Shown here: positions 24,492-46,900 of the stretch, piece by piece
Layout: every line of letters starts with the position of its first letter
How positions within the stretch are numbered: position 1 is the first letter of the stretch
Source of the DNA: Chrysiogenes arsenatis DSM 11915
Lineage (GTDB): Bacteria; Chrysiogenota; Chrysiogenetes; Chrysiogenales; Chrysiogenaceae
DNA length: 64,000 nt
Assembly: GCF_000469585.1 (NCBI RefSeq)
Contig: NZ_AWNK01000004.1
Span: 40,311-104,310 of the forward strand
Reading direction: 5' to 3'
Position numbers and translations under genes: made by a program
Notes under the pieces: model-generated
Told to the model about the DNA's origin: nothing
The model's database searches: none
What the model saw: the letters and a program-made list of their open reading frames with translations, nothing else

Positions 24492-24500
24492 CGTAGCCTC

Positions 24501-24975: not shown

Positions 24976-24993
24976 TCAGTGAAACGTTATTGC

Positions 24994-27216: not shown

Positions 27217-27258
27217 AGCTTCTCCTTCCAATCTCCTCTTTGTGGTTTCCTGCGCTGC

Positions 27259-27528: not shown

Positions 27529-27564
27529 TGAAACTACTCCTTGAAATATTAAATAAACCGTGAA

Positions 27565-27593
27565 TATCTAACACGATGAAGCGTATCCGTAAA
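27565..27593 (-). promoter_or_regulatory. Candidate sigma70-type promoter for rpsO
   Basis: Minus strand reads TTTACG, 17 nt, TAGATA, ending ~35 nt upstream of the rpsO ATG. This is a pattern match only. Confidence 0.3.
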
Positions 27594-27602
27594 GTCCTTT
27601 TC

Positions 27603-28193
27603 TTATTGCGACACCATTGCTTCCTCTACCAAATCACAAAAAAGATGGATGAGCGTAATGTGCATTTCCTGAATGCGCGGCGTGTGGGGTGACGGTACCA
27701 CTAAGGCGTGATCAGCCATGGCGGCTATTTTTCCGCCATCACGCCCTGAAAGTGCAACCGTAATTCCCCCAAGGCGTTTTGCCTCTTCCAGCGCCAGTAC
27801 CACATTCGGCGAATTGCCTGACGTGCTTATACCAATCACAATATCTCCCGTCTGACACAACCCTTCAACCTGGCGACGAAACACCTGATCATATCCATAG
27901 TCATTGCCTATCGCCGTCAGCGCCGCATTATCGGCACAGAGCGCAATAGCGGGCCATGCGCGCCGTTCACGGCGAAAGCGGCCAATAATCTCACCCGCCA
28001 AGTGCATAGCGTCTGAGGCTGAACCACCATTACCCATCACCAATATTTTATTCCCTGCTTGCAGGGCAGCGACAGTCGCATGCACTACCTGAAGTAACGG
28101 CTCACTCAGTGCAATGCGTGTGGCGTTTGCTACGGCAAGGTGCTCGTTCCATTGATCATCAATATTGCCGGAAAACTGGTAATTTTCACTCAT
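27603..28193 (-). CDS. gmhA: Phosphoheptose isomerase (SIS domain)
   Basis: SIS-domain pattern GNGGSASDAMH ... IGISTSGNSPNV ... with a GmhA-like size. The ATG at 28193 forms an ATGA overlap with the glycosyltransferase stop. Confidence 0.85.
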   Translation of the reverse strand: MSENYQFSGNIDDQWNEHLAVANATRIALSEPLLQVVHATVAALQAGNKILVMGNGGSASDAMHLAGEIIGRFRRERRAWPAIALCADNAALTAIGNDYGYDQVFRRQVEGLCQTGDIVIGISTSGNSPNVVLALEEAKRLGGITVALSGRDGGKIAAMADHALVVPSPHTPRIQEMHITLIHLFCDLVEEAMVSQ

Positions 28194-29314: not shown

Positions 29315-29374
29315 AACTGCTCCAAATATGTATCATTATCATTGCTTACAAGTAGCGTTTTGTTTCAAAGGCGG

Positions 29375-30661
29375 CTAACGCACAACGGGCAACTCATCCC
29401 ATTTTGTAGTATAACGCGGCGACAGGTTGACCTGTCGCGTATCCCACGTGTGCTCTTTGGGTTTCCCTTGGGCAGCAAACCAGATTGTGCCGCGTCCGCC
29501 ACGGTTAATACGATCAAGGGCTTGCATCAGTTGTTGGCTCTTTTGGATTTCCCCTTCGTCTTCAAAAAGACTCCGCACTTTACGGTGGCGTGGGAGTATT
29601 TCACCCAGCATAACTCCAGCTTTACTATACGCATGCCCTTCGCGCCAAATGCTTTGTAAGAGTGAGCTGGCAGCACTGATAATGTCACGACTATCGTCAG
29701 TGGCCATGCCAAGCGCCATACTTGCACTATTCGCATAATAAGGCTGGCTTTCACTAAAAGGGCTGGTTTGAAGAAAAATGGTAACGTGCTGGGTAAGAAG
29801 TTTTTGCTCGCGCAGTTTCGCTGTCGCATTTCCGGCATAAGTACAGACGGCTTCTTGCATATCAACGTTTGCCGTAATCCGTTTCCCAAAGGAGCGCGAA
29901 CAGATGAGTTGCTTTTGTATCGGAGGGCTTTCTTCGAAGGCAAAACACGGGATACCATTCAGTTCATGGATAGTACGCGACAGGGTTACGGAAAAGCGCC
30001 GCTTGATTTCTTGCGGGTTCGCCTGCGCTAGTTGCAGCGCGGTTTTAATGCCGTAGAGGTGCAGTTTTTCGGTGGTCTTTTTCCCGACACCCCACACATC
30101 TGAAACGGGGGTGATTTCCATCAGCTTTCTTTGACGTATAGAGTCGGTAAGATCGACGACACCATTCGTCGCAGGGTATTTTTTCGCAGCATAGTTGGCG
30201 AGTTTCGCAAGGGTTTTTGTAGGGCCGATCCCAATGCCTACCGTGATACCAATCCACTTGGATACAGTTTGGCGTACACGTTGCCCATATTCGGCAAGTG
30301 GTTCAACGTTGCCGATACCACTGACATCAAGGAACGCTTCATCGATCGAATATATTTCCATCCTCGGTGCAAGGGTTTCGAGAATCGCCATCATCCGTGC
30401 CGACATATCGGCGTAGAGTGGATAGTTGGAGGAAAACGCCACAATCCCATGCCGCTCAATTTCATTTTTGATTTGAAACGCAGGTACCCCCATTTTGATA
30501 CCTAATGCTTTGGCTTCCTTGGAACGAGCCACCACGCAACCATCGTTATTGGAAAAAACGACAACAGGAGTCTCTTTGAGATCAGGTCGAAAGATTTTTT
30601 CGCAACTGGCGTAAAAATTATTACCGTCGATCAAGGCATAGAGGGGCATTGGAGAAATCAT
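29375..30661 (-). CDS. umuC: Y-family translesion DNA polymerase subunit UmuC
   Basis: N-terminus ALIDGNNFYASCEKIFRPDL and SIDEAFLDV, followed by palm/fingers/little-finger length. 4-nt overlap with umuD. Confidence 0.9.
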   Translation of the reverse strand: MISPMPLYALIDGNNFYASCEKIFRPDLKETPVVVFSNNDGCVVARSKEAKALGIKMGVPAFQIKNEIERHGIVAFSSNYPLYADMSARMMAILETLAPRMEIYSIDEAFLDVSGIGNVEPLAEYGQRVRQTVSKWIGITVGIGIGPTKTLAKLANYAAKKYPATNGVVDLTDSIRQRKLMEITPVSDVWGVGKKTTEKLHLYGIKTALQLAQANPQEIKRRFSVTLSRTIHELNGIPCFAFEESPPIQKQLICSRSFGKRITANVDMQEAVCTYAGNATAKLREQKLLTQHVTIFLQTSPFSESQPYYANSASMALGMATDDSRDIISAASSLLQSIWREGHAYSKAGVMLGEILPRHRKVRSLFEDEGEIQKSQQLMQALDRINRGGRGTIWFAAQGKPKEHTWDTRQVNLSPRYTTKWDELPVVR

Positions 30662-31095
30662 AACAGTCGCTTCACCGCATGAATAATAGTGGTGACAACC
30701 CCGAAGATATCAACGTCGGCGCCATCTGGCACCTCAATCGGAGCATAGAACGAATTCATGGGAACCAGTCGCACGGTTGGTCTCATTTCGAGTTTTTTCA
30801 CCGTCAGCTCTCCATGAAACCCGGCAACCACAATATCACCGTGCTGAGCCTCAAGCGAACGATCAACAATCAAAATATCGCCCGGAGCAATACCCGCTTC
30901 TCTCATCGAATCCCCTTCCGCACGGACAAAAAAAGTGGCCGTAGGGTTGCGAATACACAGCTCATTAAGATCAAGCATCTTCTCTATATAATCTTGCGCA
31001 GGGGATGGAAAACCTGCCCGCACCGCTTCTACATACAGCGGAATTTGCAATGGTTTATCAGGGAGTTGGCATGTGCCAAGTATGGCAATACTCAT
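30658..31095 (-). CDS. umuD: UmuD (LexA-like S24 self-cleaving protein)
   Basis: VRAGFPSPA with an Ala-Gly cleavage site. The GDSM catalytic Ser region and VVKRL Lys region follow. Confidence 0.9.
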   Translation of the reverse strand: MSIAILGTCQLPDKPLQIPLYVEAVRAGFPSPAQDYIEKMLDLNELCIRNPTATFFVRAEGDSMREAGIAPGDILIVDRSLEAQHGDIVVAGFHGELTVKKLEMRPTVRLVPMNSFYAPIEVPDGADVDIFGVVTTIIHAVKRLL

Positions 31096-31122
31096 GGAAA
31101 GCTCCTTAAGAGGGCAATGACG

Positions 31123-31548
31123 TTACGGCTGTAATTCCCGTACAGTCAGCCGGTTTTCATCAATAGCCATCACTTCGACTTTGGTTCCATCAGGAAATGG
31201 GACAGTACTTTGTGCATCGTATCGCCAAAGCGTTCCACTGTATTCCACGAATTCCCCCTTCACGATACCAATTCCATGTGTGTTGATGGCTTCTATTTCG
31301 GGATGCGGCGTGGTGTCAATAAACCGTTTGCGCAGCAAGAGGAGCAAGACCAGCCCGACGGCTGCCGCAAGGGCACTTTGCAATGCCCAGTGACCAAGCA
31401 GTGCTGGAAAAAGGGCGTGAATAAGTGCCGTTGCCGCAAATCCAGCTCCAAACCACATCATGACAAAAGTGCCAGGAAAAAAAATGAGTTCGATAATGAT
31501 CAACGCGGCGGCAATGCCACCAAGCCAGAGTGGTGCCAGTGGCATCAT
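31123..31548 (-). CDS. NfeD-family membrane protein
   Basis: 141 aa with three or four N-terminal TM segments and a C-terminal soluble beta domain. 4-nt overlap with the upstream SPFH gene, the classical SPFH-NfeD pair. Confidence 0.8.
   Translation of the reverse strand: MMPLAPLWLGGIAAALIIIELIFFPGTFVMMWFGAGFAATALIHALFPALLGHWALQSALAAAVGLVLLLLLRKRFIDTTPHPEIEAINTHGIGIVKGEFVEYSGTLWRYDAQSTVPFPDGTKVEVMAIDENRLTVRELQP
31129..31145 (-). promoter_or_regulatory. Palindrome CTGTA-N7-TACAG upstream of umuD (candidate LexA operator)
   Basis: CTGTAATTCCCGTACAG lies 34-50 nt upstream of the umuD ATG, inside the last codons of nfeD. It resembles the CTGT-N8-ACAG SOS box but with one extra spacer nt. Confidence 0.3.
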
Positions 31549-32456
31549 GGCTGTTTGCCTTTATTGAACAAGTCTGAAAGAAGGCCGATGCCGGATGCCA
31601 TGCTCGACATTTCGGCAGGGACGACCCATTTACTAACAGCATCATTTTTCGCAAGGGTATTCCAAGCGGCAATACGGTCTTTTTCGAGCAGGAACTGGGC
31701 CGCAAGTTGATTATCTTGCATCGCGCTGTTGATCATTTCCATCGCCGCTTTCTGCCCTTCGGCAGTAGCCTTTTGGGCAAAGGCATCAGCTTGCGCAAGA
31801 CGCTCTTGGGCTTCTGCTTTCTTTTGCGCCTGATAGAGATCCGCATCTGACTCTTTTTGCACCTTCACTTTATCCGCTTCGGCACGAGTTTCGATGGCTC
31901 GCTTTTCACGCTCGGCAGTCATTTGCATTTCCATCGCTCTTTTGACCTGATCGGGAACGGAAATTTCGCTCACTTCAACCCGCATGATTTTAGTACCCCA
32001 AGAACTTGAGGCGAGATCAAGCTGCATCATCACTTTGGTATTGATGACGTCGCGACCGGAAAGGATCTGGTCAAGATCCATTTCACCGATGACAGCCCGC
32101 ATATTGGTGATCGCAAGATTTGAAATAGAGCTGTAGAGATCGAGCACTTTATACGTCGCATCAACCGCATTATGGGTAACGATAAAACACACACCATCGA
32201 TAGTGATAGTAACGTTATCGCGCGTAATTACCGACTGCTTGGGAATATTCACCATCGCCTCTTTGGTAGAAATCTTACTTACTACTTTATCAACAAACGG
32301 GATAATAAGACTCAGCCCCGGCGCAAGCGTCCGATGATATTTTCCAAGGCGCTCTACAATCATGTAGTGCGCTTGGGGTACAATGCGAACCGCAAATGAC
32401 GTCACCAAAAAAAGTGCTGCCGCCAGCGTTACCCAAAACGTAAGTGATTCGTACAT
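31545..32456 (-). CDS. SPFH/band-7 (stomatin-like) protein
   Basis: IVPQAHYMIVERLGKYHRTLAPGL is followed by an SPFH core and a coiled-coil tail rich in A, E, K and Q. I chose ATG 32456 after GGAGG. Confidence 0.9.
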   Translation of the reverse strand: MYESLTFWVTLAAALFLVTSFAVRIVPQAHYMIVERLGKYHRTLAPGLSLIIPFVDKVVSKISTKEAMVNIPKQSVITRDNVTITIDGVCFIVTHNAVDATYKVLDLYSSISNLAITNMRAVIGEMDLDQILSGRDVINTKVMMQLDLASSSWGTKIMRVEVSEISVPDQVKRAMEMQMTAEREKRAIETRAEADKVKVQKESDADLYQAQKKAEAQERLAQADAFAQKATAEGQKAAMEMINSAMQDNQLAAQFLLEKDRIAAWNTLAKNDAVSKWVVPAEMSSMASGIGLLSDLFNKGKQP

Positions 32457-32769
32457 CGCAAAACCTCCAGCAAAGAATAAAAACCATTTTTCAGCATAGT
32501 AACTGACCCATTCCTGACAGAACACCACAACAGACTAGTACGCTCAACAGCAGGAATCAACACTATTCATATTTCAGAAGAGTTGGTGAAGCACCTCCCC
32601 ACACCGAATATAAGACACATGAGAGTAAAGACATTAGGACTTGCGAAGCGGTATAAATCACTTATAGTACCCATGCGAAAAAGATCCACCACGCGGCAAC
32701 AAATCAAGATCCATTTATTTGACGCCTTTGTGCCGCCCAACCGAAACAAACTCAAGGAGTTTCCTAACC

Positions 32770-33620: not shown

Positions 33621-33662
33621 TTGGACAATAAAACAGGCAGCGCCATAATAAACACTGCCCGT
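33621..33662 (-). terminator. Weak candidate terminator at the end of the secretion-like operon
   Basis: Minus-strand stem ACGGGCAG / CUGCCUGU (8 bp including one G-U pair, 14-nt loop) followed by UUUAUUGU. Confidence 0.35.
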
Positions 33663-33696: not shown

Positions 33697-34551
33697 TTAT
33701 TCCCGCAGGGATATTTCTTTGTCCCACTCCCAGTAAAACGTGAGGTAAGGTTCGTTTGGGCGCCTCCACCCGAGTGAGATATGGCCAAGCATGGCATCGG
33801 GAAATCTTGAGAGGATCTGGATCACCGATGCGCGGCGAGAAATACTCAAGATCTCAAAGCATTGATCCTGCACGCACGGTAAGATATCCCTAATGGCTAC
33901 GTTTAAATCATACACTCGCAAATCCACCCCTTGGCTCTGTGGCGGAGTGTTGACGTACAGAATGTCCAGTTTTTTTTCGCCATCCACAGTTGCGACACCA
34001 ATCCGATCAAGTAGGCTACCGAAGATCGGTTCAGTAACAACCTCAGGAAGCAGTAAGGGAATCGTGGCTATGGTAGCACCGGGAACCATGTGGTAAGAAG
34101 TCACGCGCTCAAGTTTCCCACTTCGAGCCCGCCATTTGTAGCCACGACACCACAATGCCGATGGTTGCCAATAAAGTTGTTCTCCAACTTGCGTGGACAA
34201 ATGAACGGGAAATTCAAGATAGAGCTTGATGACCTCTGGCGTCGCTGACGACACGTTTTCCGGAGAGACTACCGCCGATTCAATTGCCAGATAACAAAAA
34301 TTTGCACGATCCCAATCGGCAAGAATTGATTCAGATACTATGTTCGGAACACCGCCAATCTCCTGAAAATGGGAAAACAATTCCATAGGGTCGAGATTCT
34401 GTTTATCAAACCCAAAAAGCAATCTACTGCCATCAAAGCCATTTGGTGTAATTTGCAGCGAACGTTCCCACCCTACCACTCTTGAACCCAACCAATGAGC
34501 GATTTGATAATAAACATCAAGAGTCAGAAGCTTATTGGAGTGGTTACTCAT
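33697..34551 (-). CDS. Hypothetical protein (284 aa), last gene of the operon
   Basis: Long ORF whose start overlaps the SecA-like gene stop by 8 nt. It has no signal peptide, TM segment or motif I recognise. Confidence 0.6.
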   Translation of the reverse strand: MSNHSNKLLTLDVYYQIAHWLGSRVVGWERSLQITPNGFDGSRLLFGFDKQNLDPMELFSHFQEIGGVPNIVSESILADWDRANFCYLAIESAVVSPENVSSATPEVIKLYLEFPVHLSTQVGEQLYWQPSALWCRGYKWRARSGKLERVTSYHMVPGATIATIPLLLPEVVTEPIFGSLLDRIGVATVDGEKKLDILYVNTPPQSQGVDLRVYDLNVAIRDILPCVQDQCFEILSISRRASVIQILSRFPDAMLGHISLGWRRPNEPYLTFYWEWDKEISLRE

Positions 34552-36502
34552 AACTGGTAAATGTCATCCTTTTTTGACTTTCGCGTGTTGCCGTGTTCAT
34601 AAATCGACGTAAGCGAAAGGCTTTTAACTCAGCTCGGTGCTGTGTAAGTCGAATCATTGTTGTCCATAATTTATTATGGGGCCAGTGTTCTGCCAAAGAA
34701 CACAGAACGCGCAAAACGCATTTTGGCAACACGGCTCGCATAATCCCATCCTCAAGCGAAACCAGTGGGTACGCTTCGCCCGGATTTCCCTGCCGCCCAG
34801 CGCGACCGAAAAGTTGCCAGTCAATGCGAGCCGACTCATGCGGCTCCATCATGATGACGCGTAACCCTCCTGCTGCCATTACTTCCCTCGAAAGCTTAAT
34901 GTCCGTTCCCCTTCCCGCCATGTTCGTCGCTATCGTGAGTTGCCCTTTCTCGCCTGCACGGGCAACAATATCGGCCTCTTCGGTGAGCTTTTTGGCGTTC
35001 AAGAGCTGATATTTTACCCTCTCCCGATCAAGCCGACCGGCAAGTTGTTCGCTATCTTCAATGGTACGTGTTCCTACCAGCACAGGAATCTCCCGCACAA
35101 GCAATTCCCGCAAAAGATTCAATAAACCAAGCTCTTTTTCCTGTTTCGTTACAAACAGCTGAAAAGGCTGCACGATCAGTTGCGATGGAAGTCGTGAAGG
35201 AATTCGGAGTGTGCGTATCCGATAGTTAAAAAACAGCTCATGAGCAATATTCTGCAGTGTGCCACTCGCACCCGTCAGGCGCACATAATGTTTAAAATAA
35301 TTCTGAAAACTCATCCGCGCTAACGTTTTATTCGGGTGAGTGAGTGGTACACCAGCGCGAGCCTCTACTGCTTGATGCAGGCCGTAGCTCCACGATCTAC
35401 CCGGCATAGGACGGCCAGTGCCTTCATCAACAATCACCACCTCGTCGTCAAGCACTACATAATGCTGATCCTGAAGAAAGTAATCACGCGCTAGCACAGC
35501 CTGCGTAAATAAATCATGGCGTCTATGTCGGCCTCGCCAAATAGGGGGAAGCTCTTGAGCCATCTTTTCCATTAACTGTTCACCATGTGTCGTCCAACGC
35601 ACATCTCGGTGCAGCGAACTACACTGATAATCTCGGGGCGACTGTAATCTATCGACCAGCGTGCGTGCGACAAGAATAGCTTCGTGTAGTACTGGATTAT
35701 GATCTGCTCCAGAAATAATCATCGGAGTAATGGCTTCATCAATCAAAATATTATCGGCTTCATCGACAATTGCGGTATGAATGCCGCGCATCAGTAATCG
35801 ATGTGCGGTTTGCCCTTGAAGCATACGCACACTCATGGTCAGAGGCGTCACGGAGCCGCCGAAAGTGATTTGATCGGTCAGATAGTCGGCTAAGAGCTGC
35901 TTGGCCGTTGAATACACAACATCGGCAAGATACTGCGTTGGCTTCTCTTCCTGAGTATGGGTTTGCAGCACCGTAGCAACGGAAACACTGCAAAATTCGT
36001 AGAGCGGTGCCAACTCAGTAGCGTCACGCTCGGCTAAGTAGTCATTGGCAGTAATGACGTGACAAGGTCGGTTGCTCCACCCGAAAAGAATAGCGAGTAA
36101 GCCAATCGTAAGAGTTTTCCCCTCCCCTGGTGCTAGCTGTACCAAATATCCATCAAACATGGCGAGAATGGCTGCCATTTGCACTTGATATGGTTCCATG
36201 CCCAGCAGTCGCACCGATGCAAGTTGAAGGAGAGCAAGTGTTTTATGCAATAACAACCGTTCTGCAGAGAGTTGACCGGCAAGCGCGTGCAAGCGCATTG
36301 CATTCAGCTGATGGATCAATGCTTCTGGAGTCAAATCAGCGAGAGCGCGATAGTGCCGACCAATACCATCTGCTTCTTGCAGATAGTCACTCACTAGTTT
36401 TTTTTCTCGCCAGCGATGCCGCACCAGATGCCATTTTACGATGCACCAATACGGCTCTTTCGGGAGTTTTTTTAACGATGGAAGTTGCAACGATGCGAGC
36501 AT
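34544..36502 (-). CDS. SecA-like ATPase (NBD1, PPXD, NBD2) lacking the C-terminal translocation domains
   Basis: Segments line up with canonical SecA: LGMEPYQVQMAAILAMFDGYLVQLAPGEGKTL (Walker A), ITANDYLAERDA, IVDEADNILIDEAITPMIISG, DEGTGRPMPGRSWSYGLHQAVEA and TLARMSFQNYF. Further matches are PVLVGTRTIEDSE, LNAK, TIATNMAGRGTDI and HESARIDWQLFGRAGRQGNPG. The protein ends ~80 aa after that last motif. Confidence 0.85.
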   Translation of the reverse strand: MLASLQLPSLKKLPKEPYWCIVKWHLVRHRWREKKLVSDYLQEADGIGRHYRALADLTPEALIHQLNAMRLHALAGQLSAERLLLHKTLALLQLASVRLLGMEPYQVQMAAILAMFDGYLVQLAPGEGKTLTIGLLAILFGWSNRPCHVITANDYLAERDATELAPLYEFCSVSVATVLQTHTQEEKPTQYLADVVYSTAKQLLADYLTDQITFGGSVTPLTMSVRMLQGQTAHRLLMRGIHTAIVDEADNILIDEAITPMIISGADHNPVLHEAILVARTLVDRLQSPRDYQCSSLHRDVRWTTHGEQLMEKMAQELPPIWRGRHRRHDLFTQAVLARDYFLQDQHYVVLDDEVVIVDEGTGRPMPGRSWSYGLHQAVEARAGVPLTHPNKTLARMSFQNYFKHYVRLTGASGTLQNIAHELFFNYRIRTLRIPSRLPSQLIVQPFQLFVTKQEKELGLLNLLRELLVREIPVLVGTRTIEDSEQLAGRLDRERVKYQLLNAKKLTEEADIVARAGEKGQLTIATNMAGRGTDIKLSREVMAAGGLRVIMMEPHESARIDWQLFGRAGRQGNPGEAYPLVSLEDGIMRAVLPKCVLRVLCSLAEHWPHNKLWTTMIRLTQHRAELKAFRLRRFMNTATRESQKRMTFTSYE

Positions 36503-36504
36503 GC

Positions 36505-38652
36505 TTACTGGATCTGATAGCGTGATTGTAATAGCTGCCGCACTGCCAGAGCTATTTGCTCCAGAAGCGGTCTGGGCGACAATGCAATACGCATGACACC
36601 AGGAGCACCATCATAGAAAGCCGTTGGTGATTCTGAAAAACGCGCAATCACCTCAAAAAACGGCTCATCAGTTCGTAATCTCCCTTGAGCATCAGCTTGA
36701 GCAAAGAGCGTACCACCTCCTTGAAGTGCGAGTGCCGAAGAAGGGAGCTCGTGCTTCTGATACGGAATAAACTGCAGATCATGACTCTCCAGTGGCGAAG
36801 TAAACTGCCCAGGCAGACGGATTTCGGCACGTAGCAAGTTCGATCCGAAAAGATCTCCTGCCTGCTCTTGGGTAACAACACCGACAAACTGCTGCTTGCC
36901 CGGAGTAATCATTACCCCTAAACGCTCTCCACGCATAAAATGCGAATTGACCCGCGCCGGCATCACATCACTTACCCAGATCCCATCAGTCGGTGCCACC
37001 GTCTTGAGTCGATCAAGTCGTTTGTCAAGTTCATCCAGACGCCCCACCAGAAACGACTCGCGGTCATAGAGCGCTTTTAAATCACCCTGCTTACCATCCG
37101 TTGCTTTGCGGATAAGCCAACGAGTTTCCACCAATTGTTGCCCTGTCAGTTCATACTCCAGTTCTAATTCTGGATTGATAAACTCCATCAACACACTGCC
37201 TTGCTGCACGGTATCGCCAGAACGAACGACCAGCGCTGTCAAGGTTCCACCGGCTTCCGCATACAACGGCATCCGCTGCTCAGACAAAAGCACCCCCGGC
37301 GCAACAAGGGCATACGGCAGAGGAAATGTTGCCAATACCAGCAGAATGAGCAGCGGGGTAACGGCAGAAACAACGATGGCACGACGGCGATTCTGCCGTA
37401 ATTCGCTGCTTTTACGAAGATATTGCACGAGTTTCAACGTGGGGCCAATGAGCCACATGTAGCACATTGCGAGTAACATTAAAACACCGAGAAACAGTGA
37501 AAGGTCGGCCATATAAAGCAAAATCGCCACCATAACGAACAGGCGGTAACCAAAACTTGCGGCACCATACCCATAATACCAGTAACGTTCGTTACGGTTT
37601 TCCGCCGGCTCCTGCGCATCTTTGGTGCCAAGAAGTACTACGTTCGCAATATAATGCCACTGACGCCCCGCTTTCTGATAGAGATTCGGCAAATCAATCA
37701 GATCGGAGAGGACATAATAGGCATCAAATTTCAGCAACGGATTTCCATTAAAAACAAAACTCGAAATAGAACCAATAATCATGATGTTAAAAGCAAGACC
37801 ATTGACAAACCCGGGTGCTGTCAACCCCCAAACAATCGCCGCCAACGCCGCAAAAAACAACTCAACATACAGACCAGAGACTCCGACAAATGCGCGGTGC
37901 CACTTACTGCGCATTGACCATGACGAGCTCACATCAATGTAAGGAAGCGGAGCCAGCGCGATAAACATCACCCCAAGCGTATAGACATCACCACCAGAAC
38001 GGCGACATGCTATTGCATGCCCCATTTCATGAAGAAATTTCAAGAGAAACATGGCGACATAAAGCCACAAAAGGTTATCGACGGCTAAAATCCCTTGTGC
38101 CTGACTCGTAAACGATCCGAAATGGTCAATCACCGACTTCGCACCAAACAAAACCACAAGCAACCAACCAACAAAAGACCATCGCGAAAAAAAACGTTGC
38201 AGCCATCCGATATTGTTCTTCAGAAATTCATTCGGATTCCAAAGTGGAATTCTAAAATAGAGAAATGCCAGCAGGTGAGAAAGCTTTTCCTTGCGCCGCT
38301 GCTCCGCGTAGCGCTCGAAAATTGATTCGCTCTTGCCCTGTGAGCGGAAGAACAGAAGGCTCATCTGATGCAGTTGGGATAATAACATAATGACGGCATC
38401 TTGACTCGGTGCATCTTCGGGATACTCTTCCGTAAATGCTATCCAAAGCTCTTCAACCGTTCTTTCCGGAGTAAGGCGCGCAAGGAACAGATACGCCGGT
38501 TCCTGAACGCGGTAGTACTTCTCAGAACAACTATCTTGCAGCACATACCAGACCTGATCGCGATAGATCTGTTTATGAATGCGGATCGTCGGCAGTAAAC
38601 CAAGCCGCAGTGTCGCAACCTGATACCAAGATTCGCTGAATGTCGCAGACAA
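36505..38652 (-). CDS. Polytopic M50 (site-2 protease)-family protein with PqqD-like N-domain and C-terminal MFP/HlyD-like periplasmic module
   Basis: HEMGH at residues 208-212 within a TM segment, and NPLLKFDAYY at residues 304-313 within another. There are about eight hydrophobic segments between residues 150 and 450. The N-terminal residues ~37-100 are PqqD-like. The C-terminal 260 aa have lipoyl-type half motifs (AEAGGTLTALVVRSGDTVQQGSVLMEF and VAPTDGIWV) and a beta-barrel-like tail. Confidence 0.8.
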   Translation of the reverse strand: MSATFSESWYQVATLRLGLLPTIRIHKQIYRDQVWYVLQDSCSEKYYRVQEPAYLFLARLTPERTVEELWIAFTEEYPEDAPSQDAVIMLLSQLHQMSLLFFRSQGKSESIFERYAEQRRKEKLSHLLAFLYFRIPLWNPNEFLKNNIGWLQRFFSRWSFVGWLLVVLFGAKSVIDHFGSFTSQAQGILAVDNLLWLYVAMFLLKFLHEMGHAIACRRSGGDVYTLGVMFIALAPLPYIDVSSSWSMRSKWHRAFVGVSGLYVELFFAALAAIVWGLTAPGFVNGLAFNIMIIGSISSFVFNGNPLLKFDAYYVLSDLIDLPNLYQKAGRQWHYIANVVLLGTKDAQEPAENRNERYWYYGYGAASFGYRLFVMVAILLYMADLSLFLGVLMLLAMCYMWLIGPTLKLVQYLRKSSELRQNRRRAIVVSAVTPLLILLVLATFPLPYALVAPGVLLSEQRMPLYAEAGGTLTALVVRSGDTVQQGSVLMEFINPELELEYELTGQQLVETRWLIRKATDGKQGDLKALYDRESFLVGRLDELDKRLDRLKTVAPTDGIWVSDVMPARVNSHFMRGERLGVMITPGKQQFVGVVTQEQAGDLFGSNLLRAEIRLPGQFTSPLESHDLQFIPYQKHELPSSALALQGGGTLFAQADAQGRLRTDEPFFEVIARFSESPTAFYDGAPGVMRIALSPRPLLEQIALAVRQLLQSRYQIQ

Positions 38653-38655
38653 TTC

Positions 38656-40536
38656 CTACCTCCAGAGCGCAAGACGGATACGATTCAGCGTCTTGTGTGT
38701 ATAGATCCAGAAGTACGACCGTGGTTGCACATGAATTTTTGCCACCCCAGTCATACCAGGGCGCCACCACGTTTCACCATCCTCTTCAAGTTGAGCAATC
38801 ACGGTAAACCGCGCCCCCTCCTGCGACTTCACCTCAGCCATTGGAATTACGCGACTGATTCGCAGGGGAATTTTCCGCCCTGGCTGGCTGACCAGCGCAA
38901 ATTCGCCAATACTCCCCTCGCGCACATGGTGAATGTCGTCATGCGCTACTTCAACTACCACATATACATCTTCGGTTTGTGCAATACGCAGCAGGGGTTG
39001 CCCTTTGGAAACAGGTGCTGAAATCAGCTCGCGCCGCTCCCCTTCGACCACTACCCCAGTAAAGGGAGCGTGCATATGTGCTTGCGAAAGCTGATAATTC
39101 ACCCGCTCCATACGGGCTTTCACCTGCTCAATCCGTGCCAAAGCAATCGCCAAGTCCACACTGGTAAACTCTGCCCGAGCCCGATCAGCTTCGGTTACGT
39201 TTCGCTGTAACTCCGCTTGGAGTTCGGCAAGTTGCATCAGCAAATCTTGCACATCAAGCGTCAGCAACGGATCACCTTCCACCACCTCGTCACCACTGGT
39301 GACATAGGCATCGATGATCACCCCCTCAAAAGGGGCCGTAATGAGCCGAGTATTGTCCGTAACAAACTGCCCAGTCCCTTCAACAGTATGCATGGTGGAG
39401 AATGTCAGCGAGCCAAACAACAGTAAAGATCCAGCCAGTACCAACGACTTAACCAGCAGATTTTCTGCCCCCGCAAGACGGCCAATTGTGCGCAGAGCAA
39501 CCGTCCGCAACCGATCGCGCCATTCGGCATCTTGCAAATACAATTGTTCCAGCCGCGGCATCACGGTTCGTGCCAGAAAGTGCACCGCCTCGCAAGGAAG
39601 TTCCGGCAAATCATCACGGTAGTTGACGAGTGTCAATGCGAACACGGTATGGCCGTGAGAGTTCACAAGCGGAAAAGTCATAATAGATCGTGCCGCAAGG
39701 TGGGTTTGTAGTTGTTGATGAGCAAGGGTAATTACCTTTCCATCCGAAGCACGGTGACTTGAATAATGAATGGCGGCAACCTGATCCACCGACTCCTCTA
39801 AAGCCGCTTCAAACAGTCTAACGGTATCGGTTTTTTGCTCAAAGCGCTCATAGTGGCTGATCCCCTTTACCCGTGTATACGCCCCCTCTTTCCAGCCCAG
39901 CACGACCTGATCAAAGGCGCTCTGGTAATTAACGATGCCATTGGCTAACGCATACACAGCCGCTTGAAAGTTTTCGGATTGATATATTTCGCTCAGCAAG
40001 TCGAGCAAGCTTGCGAGCATGTTTTCGTGCGCCGTTTTCCGCGCATCAACTGCTTTTGACTCTGTACCTAACAACGCTGACGTGTTCAAGACGGACTCAT
40101 CCTGCACAAAGTCGAGCATTAACTGGGCACGCACAAGAATGTCGTTCAAACGTGTTGCAGCATCACAATCAATCGCTAAAATCAAAAAATATGGGGTAGG
40201 ACACAACGCACGGAGCGCGACGAAGCCGATTGACCCATCGATATGGGGATGGGGTGGACGGTGGGCAAATCCACTGGCTTCGGCCCGCTGCAGAAAAAGG
40301 AAAAATTCCTGCGTGTCTAACAAAGGCTTTGACGGGCTTTTCTGTTCTAAATCGCTGGTAGCAACCAAAAGCAGTTGATGTTCCTGTACCAAAATGAGTT
40401 CCGCACTCGGCACACGGCATACGTTCTTGACGAGCACCAGATAATCTATCCACGATGCTTGACCTGCTTGAGACTGAGTGACCCGTACGTGGTATAATTC
40501 CTGTAATCGTTGGCGAAATGCTTCTTTAGAGGCCAT
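38656..40536 (-). CDS. HlyD/MFP-family periplasmic adaptor with ~370-aa cytoplasmic N-terminal domain and one TM
   Basis: Single TM LLVKSLVLAGSLLLFGSLTF near residue 375. Then ITAPFEGVIIDAYVTSGDEVVEGDPLLTLD, a coiled-coil hairpin, HAPFTGVVV and a beta-barrel region ending GMTGVAKI. Confidence 0.8.
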   Translation of the reverse strand: MASKEAFRQRLQELYHVRVTQSQAGQASWIDYLVLVKNVCRVPSAELILVQEHQLLLVATSDLEQKSPSKPLLDTQEFFLFLQRAEASGFAHRPPHPHIDGSIGFVALRALCPTPYFLILAIDCDAATRLNDILVRAQLMLDFVQDESVLNTSALLGTESKAVDARKTAHENMLASLLDLLSEIYQSENFQAAVYALANGIVNYQSAFDQVVLGWKEGAYTRVKGISHYERFEQKTDTVRLFEAALEESVDQVAAIHYSSHRASDGKVITLAHQQLQTHLAARSIMTFPLVNSHGHTVFALTLVNYRDDLPELPCEAVHFLARTVMPRLEQLYLQDAEWRDRLRTVALRTIGRLAGAENLLVKSLVLAGSLLLFGSLTFSTMHTVEGTGQFVTDNTRLITAPFEGVIIDAYVTSGDEVVEGDPLLTLDVQDLLMQLAELQAELQRNVTEADRARAEFTSVDLAIALARIEQVKARMERVNYQLSQAHMHAPFTGVVVEGERRELISAPVSKGQPLLRIAQTEDVYVVVEVAHDDIHHVREGSIGEFALVSQPGRKIPLRISRVIPMAEVKSQEGARFTVIAQLEEDGETWWRPGMTGVAKIHVQPRSYFWIYTHKTLNRIRLALWR

Positions 40537-40548
40537 AAAACCACACCA

Positions 40549-41433
40549 TCACAGCTGCACTCGCGCTTTTAATCCTGGCCGAAACCGATTATCCACGTTG
40601 CGATATTCAACCTTCACTTCGACTAATCCACTTGCCGGATCAGCTACTGGTGAGAGAAAAGAAATCGCCCCTTGTGCGCGCGTGGATTCCACTGCAAAAT
40701 CAACTTTTTGCCCTATCGTAAGCTTCGCTGCGATAGCACTCGGAATACTGATGCGGATGTAAATATACGAAGTATCAACCAGTTCGATGATCGGCTCACC
40801 CGCCTGAGCCCATTCCCCTTTTTTGAGGCGAATTTGGGTGATAAATCCTTTACTGGGCGCGAGTAGAGTCCGTTGGGCAAGGACTTGTCGGCCAATTTTA
40901 TAATCGTAGTCTTGTTTTTTTTCTTCTAACTCAAGCAGTGCAACTTCGCTCTCTGTTGTGACTCTATTGATGATCATTTGATTGAGCTCATCAAGACTGA
41001 TTGATCTACTTTCATGGTACAACTCAAGAGCGGATTTTACTTGCTCCACTTGCAGCAGTAACCGAGCGCGAGCCCCGTCCAATGCACTCTTGTCCCGCAT
41101 CAGCGTTTCAAGGCGCGACAGTTCAAGTTGCTCAATATGTTGCTCCAGCACCAAGAGCGGTGTTCCCTGATCGACGTAGGCTCCTTCTGCGATCTTGACT
41201 TCACTGACCACACCGCTAACCGCCATTGCGAGCAAGTAGCGCTCACGAGGGTACACCACACCTACCATCGCATCACTTATTGCAACCGTCTCATGTGGAC
41301 TCACCTCTGGACTAAATGAACGGAAATCGCCACGCGAACGAGTGCTTGGAGCCTCGCTCGCTATAGCGAATACATTCAAGGACAAAAACAGCAGGAAAAA
41401 AATACAGTTGGTCAATCGCATAGTGCCCTTCAA
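40549..41433 (-). CDS. Secreted MFP/HlyD-family periplasmic adaptor
   Basis: Signal peptide ending AIA|SEA. Lipoyl halves (VSGVVSEVKIAEGAYVDQGTPLLVLE and LAPSKGFITQI), a coiled-coil hairpin, and a beta-barrel with LVEVKVEY. Confidence 0.85.
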   Translation of the reverse strand: MKGTMRLTNCIFFLLFLSLNVFAIASEAPSTRSRGDFRSFSPEVSPHETVAISDAMVGVVYPRERYLLAMAVSGVVSEVKIAEGAYVDQGTPLLVLEQHIEQLELSRLETLMRDKSALDGARARLLLQVEQVKSALELYHESRSISLDELNQMIINRVTTESEVALLELEEKKQDYDYKIGRQVLAQRTLLAPSKGFITQIRLKKGEWAQAGEPIIELVDTSYIYIRISIPSAIAAKLTIGQKVDFAVESTRAQGAISFLSPVADPASGLVEVKVEYRNVDNRFRPGLKARVQL

Positions 41434-41437
41434 AATT

Positions 41438-43027
41438 CTACAGTGCTTCTACGTCAAACTGAATGCCGAGTTCCTGCAACAGGCTACCATCCGAAAGCTG
41501 AAGACTGATTTTTGCCAGTTCATATTGAATCTCGGCATCCACCATACGGATTATACCCACGTTGAGATTATCTTCGCGCTCAATCATATCAATGTAGCGC
41601 GCTACACCGCGGTCAAACCGTTCCCGCTCAATTTCAAGCAGTTCCTTGAGGACAGTGGTATTCTGCCGATGACGATCCAACTCTTGATACGCTTGATCTA
41701 CCTGTGCAAGCCGCAACTGAAGTTGATTTGAAAGGTCTACCTTTACCGCTTCAGCCTGATATTGATTTTGGGTAATTCGTGAAAGCGCTATGGATTCTTT
41801 CGAACGCGCACTTTGATTACCACCTAAAGGGATGGAAAACTCAACACCAGCATACCAGTTGGGATAACGCTCCGAAAATGCTTCTTCAAAAGTTCTGCCG
41901 TAGCGCTCATCATACCGAAGGCTACTTTGGCCATAGCCCGCAACAAAATCGAGTTTTGGACGCAACTCATCGCGGGCTATCGCCAGAGAATGTTCTTCCA
42001 GCGCAATACGTTCTATTGCAATTCCGTAATTCGGCCAAACACTGAGAACCTGCTCAAAGTAAGTCTGAAAACTTTCCGGCTGTTGCCACGCGGTAGTGTC
42101 AGGCTCTGAAGTCGTCTGAAAAACAACGTGCTGATATTCATTGGCTGAGAGGTTGAGAACCCCCTTAATCGCACTTTTCACTTGTTCATACCCGCGCTCT
42201 ACGACAAATGATTCTGCCTGACGAAGTAGAAGGGTAGAACGGGCTTCGGTCATAGCAGTTTGCGGTAAGCGCCCAGCTTGCACGCGCCGCTCAATATCGG
42301 TGAGGATATTATTCGCATTTTTCAATGAATCTGCATTCAAAGCTTTCATCTGTTCGGCACGGTACAGCCGCCAGTAGAGGCTGAGCGCATCGTATGACTT
42401 ACTCAGAATCTGTTGCTGAGTTTCCTGTTTGCGGATTTCAATCTGTTTTTCTGATTGTGCGATCCGATTCTCAATTTGAGCCGCCCCAAATCCGCGCAAA
42501 ATTGGTTGACGGATACGGAAATTCAGCGAACCGACATTGTCGTTAATCCCAGTAGGATCATTCACCGAGCTCGTATTATTATAGCGTTTATGCCCTTCAT
42601 ATTCGACAGAGACCTCAGCCCCAGAAACGACTAACGTGCGCACGCCAAACTGAAAACGACCATTGCGGTCTATCGTCGTGTCATTAGGGGCTAACGGATT
42701 ATTTTCGGTTTTTCGCTCATCAGCACGGAGTATTGAAAAAAATTCCATCTCGTATGCGGCGCGATCATGCTGTAGTTGCGCCTCAGCAATTTTTTTCTGC
42801 TCTGCACTTACGAGCACCTCAGGATTGCGTAGGAGCACAAGGTGCACGAAAGACTCTTTATTTAGAGCCACAGCACCTTGTTGTATTTGCGTCAGCACTT
42901 GTTCGTGGCGATTCATGTCACCATGAGAAGGTTGACTCTCGGCCCACGCGGGAATGGCCAGACACGCTGCCGAAACCGCTAAACCTGCAAAAACTTTTTG
43001 GGGGCAAGAAAGTATATTCCGTATCAT
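41438..43027 (-). CDS. TolC-family outer-membrane channel protein
   Basis: Signal peptide ending PAWA|ESQ. Two-fold repeat organisation with long helical and short beta segments, with size and pattern typical of outer-membrane efflux proteins. I chose ATG 43027 after AAGAGG. 4-nt gap to the next gene. Confidence 0.85.
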   Translation of the reverse strand: MIRNILSCPQKVFAGLAVSAACLAIPAWAESQPSHGDMNRHEQVLTQIQQGAVALNKESFVHLVLLRNPEVLVSAEQKKIAEAQLQHDRAAYEMEFFSILRADERKTENNPLAPNDTTIDRNGRFQFGVRTLVVSGAEVSVEYEGHKRYNNTSSVNDPTGINDNVGSLNFRIRQPILRGFGAAQIENRIAQSEKQIEIRKQETQQQILSKSYDALSLYWRLYRAEQMKALNADSLKNANNILTDIERRVQAGRLPQTAMTEARSTLLLRQAESFVVERGYEQVKSAIKGVLNLSANEYQHVVFQTTSEPDTTAWQQPESFQTYFEQVLSVWPNYGIAIERIALEEHSLAIARDELRPKLDFVAGYGQSSLRYDERYGRTFEEAFSERYPNWYAGVEFSIPLGGNQSARSKESIALSRITQNQYQAEAVKVDLSNQLQLRLAQVDQAYQELDRHRQNTTVLKELLEIERERFDRGVARYIDMIEREDNLNVGIIRMVDAEIQYELAKISLQLSDGSLLQELGIQFDVEAL

Positions 43028-43063
43028 CGTCAACCTCTTTGTATCGGCATAGATGGCCATGGC

Positions 43064-43901: not shown

Positions 43902-46900
43902 TTAAAACTCAAATTCTTCCTCTGTGTAGAAGTCGAAAATGAAACTATCTTGAATACTTGAGCCAAAGCTCGAAAACTGGAAGTCTCCATAGAAGTTAAC
44001 CACCTTGCTGGAAGTATACGGCATTTGCAGGTTGAAACCTGGCTCTAAGCCTACTGGCGCTTGCTGCATAAATCCAAAGTCGAAGTTGATGCCACCAAAC
44101 ATTCCGTCAGAGATGCCAAGATCGCTCAAGTTCATAAAGGAACTCATGGTGGCTTTCTGTAAACGTGACAAGCTTGCATGATCAAGGAATGTTGTCGCAT
44201 TGTGCAAACGCAGAGCATCCATATTTTCTATCGATAATTCTTGGATTGTTTTACTTGCACTAGCCGAAGCGCCTCCCCCTTGAGATCCACTGAAGCGCAC
44301 TGACTCAAAAGCACTCAATTTGAATTCCGCTCTCACTGGACCATGAACAACGGCGTGATTACCCACAGAAATCACGTACACTCGCTGATCAATACCACGG
44401 ATACCAAATATATAGCTATCACCAGTAGCATCATCAACAACACTATACAGTTGCCCAGGACCGACAATGCCATGAATCTGCGCTGCATCTATCTTCAGTA
44501 AGTCAGCGCGGATAGCTTCAAGTTGAGGTATCAGGCTTGCTACTGGCTGATCAATAAAAAACGGTATCGTCTTGATAAACACCTGATTGGCAACAATATT
44601 GGCTGCTTGTGTCCCGAGCGAACTCTGGATACGATATTCCGAACTTTCAAGCCACACATCACCACCCGTCGCAACGTGAGCAATCAACAAAATACTATCG
44701 GTCGAGGTAAAGTAAATATCGCCTCGCTCTGATAATGTCTGTGCACTTGCTTTCATCTCTATGACCGGAGCCGTGTAACGAACTTCCCCCTGCCCCGTCA
44801 GCGACAGAGTGGCCTCTTGCACAATACTTTTTCCAGATGAAAGGACAACGGTACTATCGACGCCTGAGATATTCATAGCAAGAATCAGTGAACCATGTAC
44901 GGCATGGAGTTCGATAGTGCCATGACTACTCGTTCCATTCAGCATTGAATCCGTAATTTCTTCAACAAGAGCTTCATTGGTCATCCGCAGCACCGTTAGC
45001 TCACCGAACTGGTCATTATCACCAATGCGCAAATCTTCTTGGGCGGCAAGGAAGATACCACCATGACCAATATCCGCACTCAGTGAATCGACTTCAACCA
45101 CAAAAGGACGCCCTGATTCACCAAGTTGACTACCAGTAACCCGCAGATACTTTGCTAGGATATTCACGGTACTTGAAGGAGCACTGGTTATGACGCCACC
45201 AACCAGACTGACCGCAGTTGGAGTTGTTACATGAGAGATGGACATACTGTGAGTTGCTTCGATGCGAATATTGTTCTGAGTTTGCAATAGAGCTTTAGCT
45301 GTCATGGAGACTGATTGGGCACTAATGTCGAGCGTCGCATCTCCTGTAATATGAACCAGACTGTCGATAAACTCCACATTGCCGTTCCGCGCTAACAACG
45401 ACACATTACCACTGCTGGCAATGTCGCTCTGCACGATAATGGATCCATTTTCAACTTCTATTTGTAAGTGCTCGCCAGAGAAATTCAACGCACCATCAAG
45501 TATAAAGTTTCGCTGCTCACCGGAAACGCCTGCCTGCACCATTATGACAGTTACGGTGTCGGTTGCCAATTCAAGCTCAGACAAACGCAGATCACCACTA
45601 GTGGTAATGGTATTTAACCCCGCTATGGTGAATACCCCCTGCAGGGTAGTAGTCCCGCCACTGTGAGCACTTAGATCGCCACCAACCGTGAGGTTTCCTT
45701 CAATTGTCAAAGTTTCATCGGTTTTGATAGTCGTGTCACCGGTGATAGTGATTGCATCGCTGAGTATTACTGCTCCGGTTCCGGTGATAGCAAGGTCGCC
45801 GCCAATCTCTAGTGTGCCTTCGACGGTAGTTGCTCCGCCGACTGTCAGGGTAACATTGGCGCTGGTGAAAGTTCCTTCTATCAGCAGGGCATCGGTTGAT
45901 GTTAGTTCAGTACTTCCTTCAACGATAAAGATTCCGTCTAGGATGCTCTCGCCTGCACTGCTTGTGGTAAGGGCGCCACCAACAGTGAAGTTTCCTTCAA
46001 GTGTCAGGTCAGCATCGGTCTCGATAGTCGCGTCACCAATAATAGTGATTGTATCGTTGAGCATCACCGCTCCGGTTCCGGTGATAGCAAGGTCGCCGCC
46101 AATATCTAGTGTGCCTTCGACGGTAGTTGCTCCGCCGACTGTCAGGGTAATGTTGGCGCTGGTGAAAGTTCCTTCTATCAGCAGGGCACCGGTTGATGTT
46201 AGTTCAGTACTTCCTTCAACGATAAAGGTTCCATCTAGGATGCTCTTGCCAACACTGCTTGTGATGAGGGCGCCACCAACAGTGAAGTTTCCTTCAATCG
46301 TCAGGTCGGCATCGGTCTCGATAGTCGCGTCACCGCTAATGGTGATTGCATCGCTGAGCATCACCGCTCCAGTTCCGGTGATAGCAAGGTCGCCGCCAAT
46401 ATCGAGCGTACCTTCGACTGTAGTTGCTCCACCGACTGTCAGGGTGACGTTGGCACCGCTGAAGGTTCCGGTAATCGATAAGTCTGCTTTCGCATCGATA
46501 GTCGTGTCACCGCTAATGGTGATTGCATCGCTGAGTATTACTGCTCCGGTTCCAATGATAGCAAGGCTGCCTGCAACATCCAGCTCACCTTCGATAGTGG
46601 TTGTTCCGCCGATTGTCAGGGTGACATTGGCGCTGGTGAAAGTTCCTTCTATCAGCAGGGCACCGGTTGATGTTAGTTCAGTACTTCCGTCAACGATAAA
46701 GGTTCCATCTAGGATGCTCTTGCCAACACTGCTTGTGATGAGGGCGCCACCAACAGTGAAGTTTCCTTCAAGTGTCAGGTCGGCATCAGTCTCGATAGTC
46801 GCGTCACCGCTAATGGTGATTGCATCGCTGAGCATCACCGCTCCGGTTCCGGTGATAGCAAGGTCGCCGCCAATATCTAGTGTGCCTTCGACGGTAGTTG

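Follow-up and report, generated by a model that had tools for sequence, protein, structure and literature searches.

What can be exported by a set of TolC and membrane fusion protein (MFP) genes without a transporter of the usual kinds? The question is raised by a locus of Chrysiogenes arsenatis DSM 11915, which lies in a stretch of 64,000 nucleotides (contig NZ_AWNK01000004.1, positions 40,311 to 104,310), called the window below and numbered from its own first letter. In this locus, genes for a TolC-family outer-membrane factor and for two MFPs are accompanied by those for an M50-like membrane protein with an MFP module of its own and for a short SecA-like ATPase. To our knowledge, every textbook tripartite TolC machine possesses an engine of the ATP-binding cassette (ABC), resistance-nodulation-division (RND) or major facilitator superfamily (MFS) type. 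No gene of these three types was found among the open reading frames (ORFs) scanned with Pfam from position 22892 to the right end of the window, nor is any conserved over the 83 related loci compared here, in agreement with the preliminary description of this DNA, which had reported no such partner. As a whole, the analysis suggests that the locus probably codes for a TolC-dependent, ABC-independent exporter that spans the envelope and is dedicated to the giant protein encoded next to it.

Eight co-directional genes are found on the minus strand, in the order giant ORF, SapC, TolC, small MFP, GAF-type MFP, M50 fusion, SecA-like ATPase and 284-aa ORF (Table 1). The last six are separated by gaps of 4, 12, 3 and 2 nt and one 8-nt overlap, the SapC gene lies 68 nt upstream of the TolC gene, and the giant ORF 26 nt upstream of SapC. 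A strong terminator-like hairpin (33662-33633) would mark the 3' end of the operon. The six ORFs of the block had been described before, and their coordinates, gaps and overlap were all confirmed, as were the TolC, MFP and SecA-like assignments by Pfam and NCBIfam hidden Markov model searches; the TolC ORF measures 540 aa from the ATG at 43060, or 529 aa from the internal Met12 at 43027, the end given earlier. The reading of these six genes as one operon holds as far as their spacing is concerned, but the unit extends upstream with SapC and the giant ORF, both of which had been missed. As for the M50 and PqqD assignments, motifs and folds are present, although the Pfam scores stay below threshold.

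The co-occurrence of these genes across genomes, a check proposed in the preliminary description, was then determined, and the gene set proved to be a module conserved across phyla. The M50-MFP fusion was found in at least 591 species (pattern scan, one genome per species), belonging to the Alpha-, Beta- and Gammaproteobacteria, Desulfobacterota, Planctomycetota, Verrucomicrobiota, Lentisphaerota and Nitrospirota, and to metagenome-assembled genomes (MAGs) labelled Chloroflexota. The other components were counted by tblastn over 83 loci, in all of which (83/83) the M50-MFP fusion is present by construction. The GAF-type MFP is found in 80 of the 83 and the short SecA in 76, its absences being mostly at contig ends, followed by the small MFP (at least 47), OEP (at least 40) and SapC (at least 29), and the 284-aa gene is restricted to the window (1/83). 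In Desulfosarcina ovata (Desulfobacterota) the order is that of the window, with a giant gene of 9,627 aa followed by SapC, OEP, MFP, MFP, M50 and SecA, and Azohydromonas lata has a permuted gene order behind its giant gene. Chance clustering was rejected, as synteny holds across phyla. ORFs with an ABC pattern (Walker A ... LSGGQ ... Walker B) were detected in five of the 83 loci, each at least 2 kb away and mutually unrelated, and the operons of the annotated plasmid loci carry no ABC, RND or MFS gene either.

Concerning the probable cargo, an adjacent giant gene was found in 40 of the 66 loci whose flank exceeds 3 kb, and in 14 of the 17 for which both flanks exceed 6 kb. A giant-gene neighbour was defined here as an adjacent ORF of at least 1,000 aa, or one with a LEPR-XLL start or with an acidic-aromatic tail at its end. 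In the window, the first ATG of the giant ORF is preceded by a sense codon, and the gene therefore runs past the window and codes for more than 6,697 aa. In the encoded protein, Gly, Thr, Ala, Ser, Asp and Asn are abundant, Cys occurs once, and the C-terminal 3,000 residues include ten DUF5649 repeats; no RTX GGxGxD motif is present over the 6,697 aa. Proteins that fold only once exported typically have such a composition, yet this one is no classical substrate of type I secretion. A search of a collection of 5.8 billion proteins with the 600 aa nearest the N-terminus in the window ORF gave no match, not even to itself. One relative found in the representative library measures exactly 3,000 aa, and giant proteins may be dropped from such resources or truncated in them. 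A 1,037-aa antisense ORF (45688-48801, plus strand) and several of 150-280 aa inside the giant gene are most likely by-products of composition and not genes, and GC skew is locally stronger at 50-58 kb.

At its C-terminus, the giant ORF ends in an acidic-aromatic tail (...DSFIFDFYTEEEFEF). The tails of the giant ORFs upstream of the system read FIFDFYTEEEFEF in the window and GRFDYWVEDISF, WLFEYWTEDVVL, YEYWSDDDELSI, FDLWVEELML and DIDDWLEGLLR in other loci. The corresponding regular expression matches 10 of the 800 ORF C-termini present in the loci, all ten belonging to the ORF directly upstream of the system, and the place of the tail at the very end of the protein is constant across Chrysiogenota, Desulfobacterota and beta/gammaproteobacteria. 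When the last 249 aa of the giant ORF were compared with 1.8 billion representatives by phmmer, only seven matches were obtained, six of them with E < 1e-10; all six matched at their extreme C-termini, and the five tails that were read end alike. With only seven matches, the whole C-terminal domain is not a widespread family, and what is shared is just the short tail. A related DLDD(x)W..E element occurs in alphaproteobacterial giants. Other subclades (L018, L023, L038, L043; L064, L067; L079, L080, L082) keep different C-termini, namely '..YGL...L(L/V)RSTGQ(L/V)(L/V)...W', 'DFVNH.G.S.A.RNPNA' and, in a third subclade, a 'G(F/A)SGW' hydrophobic segment with a basic tail behind it, reminiscent of a sorting or anchor signal. 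The giant protein of Pontibrevibacter ends (L085:1043-1200) in DLDDADWLIED, a hydrophobic stretch and RRERTKR.

The opposite end of these proteins is more uniform: a LEPR-XLL N-terminus (...F.(V/L)E.LE(P/Q/A)R.LLSA(D/S)P...) was found in 10 of the 10 loci in which the start of the giant gene beside the system is visible. Five of these ten N-termini were scored with NF012209 (LEPR-XLL) and reached 25-35 bits, vs. a cutoff of 17. The motif is also present in both complete plasmid giants, those of Pontibrevibacter (10,603 aa) and of Methylosinus plasmid pMSC49a (8,847 aa), the latter reading ...FDTLEPRVLLNADV... near its N-terminus. In Pontibrevibacter, the LEPR-XLL giant is followed by DUF3467, the GAF-MFP, the M50-MFP (annotated as 'PqqD family'), the SecA-like protein (annotated as 'DEAD/DEAH helicase') and the small MFP; the same genes, plus TolC, come after the Methylosinus giant.

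The 715-aa fusion is made of three modules: an N-terminal domain (residues ~1-105) like the RRE (recognition element of ribosomally synthesised and post-translationally modified peptides, RiPPs) or PqqD, an M50 part with HEMGH at 208-212 and NGNPLLKFD at 302-310, and an MFP module at ~444-715. Its sub-threshold Pfam scores are 24.7 vs. 27.2 bits for M50 and 18.2 vs. 23.4 bits for PqqD. The N-terminal domain has a winged-helix fold with a three-stranded sheet and three helices, and this fold matches leader-bound lasso-peptide B1 proteins (RRE; TfuB1, TbiB1), by analogy with which leader binding itself is predicted. As for the M50 part, an S2P (site-2 protease) core fold is present, with HExxH in a transmembrane (TM) helix and the NxxPxxxxD(G) zinc ligand in a later one. 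H208, E209 and H212, together with N302-x-N304-P305-L306...D310, show no variation in two alignments, of 18 and of 30 diverse members, and the motifs HExxH and NPxxxxD were found in 120 and 116 of 120 relatives, respectively. From the seven hydrophobic segments, the RRE is predicted to be cytoplasmic and the MFP module periplasmic.

The 652-aa SecA-like protein, which shows 100% identity to a protein of C. arsenatis, aligns with Bacillus subtilis SecA over residues 33-558 only, that is NBD1 (nucleotide-binding domain 1), the PPXD (polypeptide cross-linking domain) and NBD2, and ends about 50 residues later. As the alignment stops at NBD2, the protein is devoid of the helical wing domain, the two-helix finger and the C-terminal linker; most of the scaffold domain is gone as well, and Pfam detected no domain beyond SecA_DEAD, SecA_PP_bind and P-loop_SecA. 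The two-helix finger is thought to drive chain movement in SecA. Among 120 members of this family (median 655 aa), GEGKT is kept in 119, DE[AV]D in 120, TNMAGRGTDI in 118 and GRxGRQG in 104. Inactivation of the Walker/DEAD motifs in orthologues, which the preliminary description had listed among the findings that would speak against its reading, was not observed: the Walker A, DEAD and arginine-finger motifs of the ATPase are kept in about 100% of 120 family members, as are the metalloprotease motifs in 120 members of their own family. In RefSeq and GenBank, the short SecA is named 'prepilin peptidase' or 'DEAD/DEAH box helicase' (e.g. L084:22204-24120, WP_244635385.1, and L083:22124-24109), and the fusion 'PqqD family peptide modification chaperone' or 'HlyD family efflux transporter periplasmic adaptor subunit'; such misannotation is systematic and conceals the system.

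The 626-aa MFP consists of a cytoplasmic N-domain of ~355 aa, one TM segment (~360-378) and, C-terminal to it, a periplasmic HlyD-type adaptor, and matches MacA and EmrA in a profile search of the PDB. GAF was detected in 19 of 29 aligned orthologues, but a search of the window protein that allowed E values as high as 10 did not find it, so that the label GAF-type is owed to the orthologues. The 294-aa MFP has a signal-peptide-like hydrophobic segment at residues 7-25, which makes it a soluble periplasmic adaptor. Situated between the giant gene and TolC, the SapC protein has no signal peptide and no informative sequence relative in the PDB, and is probably a cargo-specific accessory factor. 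In alphaproteobacterial loci its slot, there between the giant gene and the GAF-MFP, is held by a DUF3467 protein of ~95-105 aa (PF11950, 1e-14; L083:17848-18129 and L084:17726-18046), and in Azohydromonas by a protein with an Lcl_C domain (L002:4851-6224), which suggests that SapC, DUF3467 and the Lcl_C protein are interchangeable cargo-specific accessory factors. In two loci of Pseudomonadota and Burkholderiaceae MAGs (L010 and L011), SapC is present twice, ahead of the GAF-MFP and again between the SecA-like gene and OEP, and L011 has another large ORF (>1,192 aa) downstream, whose first 160 residues contain no LEPR motif. Finally, the 284-aa protein has no Pfam or NCBIfam match at E up to 10, and its gene, missing from the other 82 loci, was treated as a lineage-specific accessory gene. 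PDB sequence matches of this protein to designer PPR proteins were rejected as artefacts, with zero significant stretches, and a single-sequence AlphaFold2 model was unusable (predicted local distance difference test, pLDDT, of 44.5).

Taken together, an RRE fold, an adjacent S2P-type site and a cargo motif of ~24 residues make leader recognition and cleavage the most economical model of how the cargo enters the machine. In this model, the cytoplasmic RRE of the 715-aa protein would bind the LEPR-XLL leader of the cargo, as RREs bind RiPP leader peptides, and the neighbouring site-2-protease-like site would clip it at the cytoplasmic face of the membrane. The short SecA, which has kept the motor and the preprotein clamp but not the two-helix finger that couples to SecY, would dock on the M50 face and the GAF domain in the cytoplasm, and thread the unfolded chain by ATP hydrolysis. 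The chain would then cross the inner membrane through the M50 TM bundles and the MFP anchors, and the three MFP modules would form a periplasmic tube up to TolC. SapC, or DUF3467 in other lineages, may together with the C-terminal tail take part in cargo handling or retention. The RRE, leader and cleavage steps specifically are put forward more tentatively than the exporter as such, and we regard them as somewhat more doubtful than not.

The polarity of such a transport could also be the reverse. In a type I-like export starting with the C-terminus, the acidic-aromatic tail would be the signal and LEPR-XLL would enter last, as a retention or anchor element which the RRE/M50 protein cleaves for release, much as LapG acts on LapA. 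The tail is indeed position-fixed across phyla and unique to the ORF upstream of the system, a related 'D-D-W..E' element exists in the alphaproteobacterial giants, and TolC/MFP machines for giant adhesins (LapA, MpIBP) normally start from the C-terminus. SecA-type motors and RREs, however, normally engage N-terminal signals or leaders; LEPR-XLL is conserved in all subclades examined, whereas the C-terminal sequence varies between them; and a release step like that of LapG takes place in the periplasm, the side of the membrane opposite to that predicted for the RRE. C-terminus-first export is thus considered unlikely, even though it is the best surviving of the alternatives.

A second alternative bears on the motor. 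Protein-level searches revealed a sister family in 53 plasmid records, from Azospirillum, Escherichia (17-18), Citrobacter (8), Kosakonia and others, made of a giant gene (DUF4347 or Ig-like), TolC, a small MFP, an MFP of ~450 aa and an M50/MFP fusion of 700-733 aa with the motifs HELGH and N..P.MRFDG. The DUF4347 giant protein of this sister system measures 4,195 aa. No SecA-like, ABC or other ATPase gene was found within the 9-kb flanks of the two sister loci inspected (Azospirillum and Kosakonia; Table 1). The Escherichia matches were seen only at the plasmid protein level, a blastn search of a Kosakonia sister-system gene against E. coli genomes having given no match. The M50-MFP/MFP/TolC assembly may therefore be the basic exporter and the short SecA a branch-specific addition, the sister systems possibly using proton-motive force or the housekeeping SecA. 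Extended to the locus itself, this would mean that the M50-MFP fusion, two MFPs and TolC are powered by proton-motive force or by the housekeeping Sec system, with the short SecA as a holdase, unfoldase or targeting factor. Besides the SecA-less loci beside giant genes in the 53 plasmid records, the reduction of the SecA-like protein, which has lost its two-helix finger, its wing and most of its scaffold (see also Kamneva, Poudel and Ward, 2015, PLoS One; PMC4452313), points in this direction. On the other side, a gap of only 2 nt couples translation of the SecA-like gene to that of the M50 gene, and the SecA-like gene is present in 76 of the 83 loci, with all ATPase motifs and the PPXD clamp kept, and a short SecA that is no motor seems to us distinctly less likely than an inverted polarity. 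The sister system nevertheless weakens the literal proposal of the preliminary description, a SecA motor in place of the ABC ATPase, which is plausible and unrefuted but too simple; the case for an ABC-free exporter is not weakened.

The third alternative comes from the fusion protein itself. Its residues 23-401 match daptide_HExxH (NF041824, the daptide intramembrane metalloprotease) at 6.8e-45, with a score of 153.8 vs. a cutoff of 300, which makes the protein homologous to, and not a member of, that family, and its N-terminal ~400 aa are weakly related to the YydH/LiaK family. Together with the RRE fold shared with lasso-peptide B1 proteins and the RefSeq name of the orthologues ('PqqD family peptide modification chaperone'), this homology to a daptide leader peptidase would suit a module for RiPP or bacteriocin maturation and export, in which the RRE/M50 protein processes a small leader peptide, the product leaves through the MFPs and TolC, and the giant gene is unrelated. 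This is very improbable: no conserved small precursor or modification enzyme was noticed in the 83 loci (ORFs of at least 90 aa being called), the conserved neighbour is a giant gene with a leader-like N-terminal motif, and, by its operon spacing, the exporter belongs to a single unit with SapC and the giant gene. A device for regulated intramembrane proteolysis or signalling, or a small-molecule efflux pump, in place of a protein exporter, could be suggested by the classical role of M50 proteases in signalling, the sensory nature of GAF domains (PMC4452313) and the small molecules that MFP/TolC systems often pump, but it hardly deserves consideration in view of a SecA paralogue with intact PPXD and an RRE, which point to a polypeptide substrate, of the tight linkage to giant secreted-type proteins, and of the fact that no conserved sigma/anti-sigma pair lies nearby.

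Several observations weigh against the reading of the locus as a dedicated, SecA-assisted exporter of the giant protein. The two-helix finger is missing from the SecA-like protein, no component is a proven protein-conducting channel of the inner membrane, and the sister system may indicate that the ATPase is accessory and not the core motor. An adjacent giant gene is missing from some loci (L066, L069 and L077). The N-terminus of the window's own giant ORF lies past position 64000, and a LEPR-XLL motif at that end is expected from the other loci only; moreover, kinship among the neighbouring giant proteins could explain part of the shared termini. The direction of transport (N-first or C-first) and leader cleavage are proposals, and the exporter function itself is a predicted one. 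Finally, in M. extorquens AM1 the GAF gene is the only one of the core genes that is appreciably expressed (PMC4452313).

Table 1. Position, strand and main characteristics of the genes of the exporter locus, of its downstream neighbours in the window and of two sister loci found on plasmids
Feature	Position	Strand	Characteristics
Giant ORF, >6,697 aa	43902-64000	minus	5' end past the window; probable cargo
SapC-family protein, 248 aa	43129-43875	minus	PF07277 SapC 3.3e-69
TolC-family outer-membrane factor	41438-43060	minus	OEP 6.3e-27; type_I_sec_TolC 7.9e-12
Small MFP, 294 aa	40549-41433	minus	HlyD_3 1.9e-18; RND_mfp 95.4 bits
GAF-type MFP, 626 aa	38656-40536	minus	HlyD_D23 6.8e-18; HlyD_3 3.5e-14
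RRE/M50/MFP fusion, 715 aa	36505-38652	minus	RRE/PqqD-like, seven-TM M50 and MFP modules
Short SecA-like ATPase, 652 aa	34544-36502	minus	SecA_DEAD 4.5e-71; SecA_PP_bind 6.5e-23; P-loop_SecA 2.3e-44
284-aa ORF	33697-34551	minus	no Pfam or NCBIfam match; 8-nt overlap with the SecA-like gene
Terminator-like hairpin	33633-33662	minus	12-bp stem with 6 GC pairs and a T-rich tail; 35 nt past the stop of the 284-aa ORF
SPFH/NfeD pair	31123-32528	minus	
umuD/umuC-like genes	29375-31095	minus	
Glycosyltransferase and SIS-domain gene	27603-29314	minus	
PNPase	24994-27231	minus	
CheC-like and PAS-GGDEF genes	22892-24491	minus	
Sister locus, Azospirillum brasilense Sp7 plasmid p2 (NZ_CP012916.1)	L087:4539-10875		
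Sister locus, Kosakonia cowanii plasmid (NZ_CP107078.1)	L088:5050-10788		

Downstream of the locus, an SDR (short-chain dehydrogenase/reductase) gene lies beyond the hairpin on the opposite strand, and the minus-strand genes of the region 22892-32528 are seemingly unrelated to the system. The PAS-GGDEF neighbour would possibly be relevant if the giant protein were an adhesin controlled by cyclic di-GMP; nothing connects the two here.

How does the locus compare with known systems? It shares with type I secretion (HlyBD-TolC, LapBCE-LapA, MpIBP) the TolC duct, the HlyD-type adaptors and the spanning of both membranes, as well as a very large, Cys-poor repeat cargo encoded beside the transporter and endowed with a conserved C-terminal element. 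It differs by having no ABC gene and no RTX nonapeptides, three different MFP modules and not one, an intramembrane metalloprotease with an RRE, a SecA-type ATPase and, in the cargo family, an N-terminal LEPR-XLL. A classical type I system was rejected: MFPs and an outer-membrane factor are present, but there is no HlyB-type ABC gene, there are no RTX repeats, and the C-terminal tail is of another type. In comparison with peptidase-containing ABC transporters and RiPP leader peptidases (NF041824; TfuB1, TbiB1), the substrate is apparently no peptide but a protein whose length ranges from several thousand residues to tens of thousands, the protease carries a fused MFP, and the ATPase is SecA-like and not ABC.

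As in the accessory SecA2 systems known from Gram-positive bacteria and mycobacteria, a second, specialised SecA paralogue would serve particular, often very large adhesin, substrates. SecA2, in contrast, keeps the scaffold and works with SecY2 or SecYEG, whereas the protein of the window ends after NBD2 and has MFP, TolC and M50 partners. No SecA or SecA2 NCBIfam model reaches its cutoff on the 652-aa protein (315-395 bits vs. 725-1100 for four SecA2 models); with these scores far under the cutoffs and no SecY-like gene in the operon, an accessory Sec system of the SecA2 type was rejected. A SecA motor without wing and scaffold, tied to the export of giant proteins, is also found in Omnitrophota (10.1101/2023.11.21.568195), but there the motor is fused into the giant protein and lies beside type II/IV-like secretion genes, and not with MFP, TolC and M50.

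Closer to the cargo of the window are Cag_663 and Cag_665 of Chl. chlorochromatii (36,806 and 20,647 aa), which carry N-terminal LEPRxLL domains of 24 aa and have sapC and tolC as flanking genes. They are expressed together with a secA gained by horizontal transfer, and pass into the partner bacterium (10.64898/2026.03.19.712371). The SapC and TolC flanks and the involvement of secA are common to both cases, and the LEPRxLL N-terminus is shared with the giant proteins of other loci of the present system; the repeats of the Chl. chlorochromatii proteins are beta-helical. Unlike in the window operon, the MFP and secA genes are scattered in the genome of Chl. chlorochromatii. The authors describe these giants as being without recognisable transport signals, and propose a SapC/TolC/HlyD route with no M50 protein or SecA motor (10.64898/2026.03.19.712371). 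One Chlorobi species is also among the hosts of the secondary SecA listed in PMC4452313. The LEPR-XLL class, with its Chlorochromatium proteins of 20,000-36,000 residues, includes the largest proteins known in bacteria, for which the present system would be a candidate export route. It may be, though we hold this wider view with slightly less than even confidence, that these LEPR-XLL giants possess a distinct and so far unnamed diderm secretion system, with selection by an RRE, S2P-like processing, a SecA-derived motor, three kinds of MFP plus TolC, and neither ABC nor SecYEG, the simpler ATPase-less sister system of plasmids exporting other giants. If true, a machine built on a SecA paralogue and an intramembrane protease would represent, in at least 591 species, a new route across two membranes.

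The closest known counterpart remains the locus type described by Kamneva, Poudel and Ward (PMC4452313), who reported in silico secondary SecA_DEAD proteins lacking the wing and scaffold domains, encoded with a weakly M50-like HlyD protein, a GAF-HlyD protein, a HlyD protein and sometimes OEP, with no ABC. They noted a patchy distribution across phyla resembling horizontal transfer, proposed that SecA_DEAD is a co-opted ATPase and the M50 protein the membrane component, and called the biological role completely unknown. The machine, which the preliminary description had presented as a candidate new one, is therefore not new as a locus; no experimental study or later analysis of the module was found in a full-text literature search with little coverage of subscription journals. 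The window possesses the short SecA_DEAD protein, the polytopic M50/HlyD protein and no conserved ABC; concerning the GAF-HlyD-biotin-lipoyl protein of this locus type, the HlyD part is present in the window protein, and GAF was detected only in orthologues (19/29). The locus of C. arsenatis is thus a member, from a new phylum, of a known and experimentally uncharacterised system type. Gene content and proposed logic are alike in both; the 2015 paper, in which Chrysiogenota are not listed, contains no cargo, giant proteins, SapC or DUF3467, RRE or analysis of catalytic motifs. The cargo and signal link, the RRE and S2P assignment and the SecA-less sister system appear to be new, in that they were not found in the literature searched. 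The window thereby adds to the 2015 module a new phylum and a complete eight-gene layout including the giant gene, and the cargo link makes that module testable, with a substrate class, a candidate signal, a candidate receptor in the RRE and a candidate protease.

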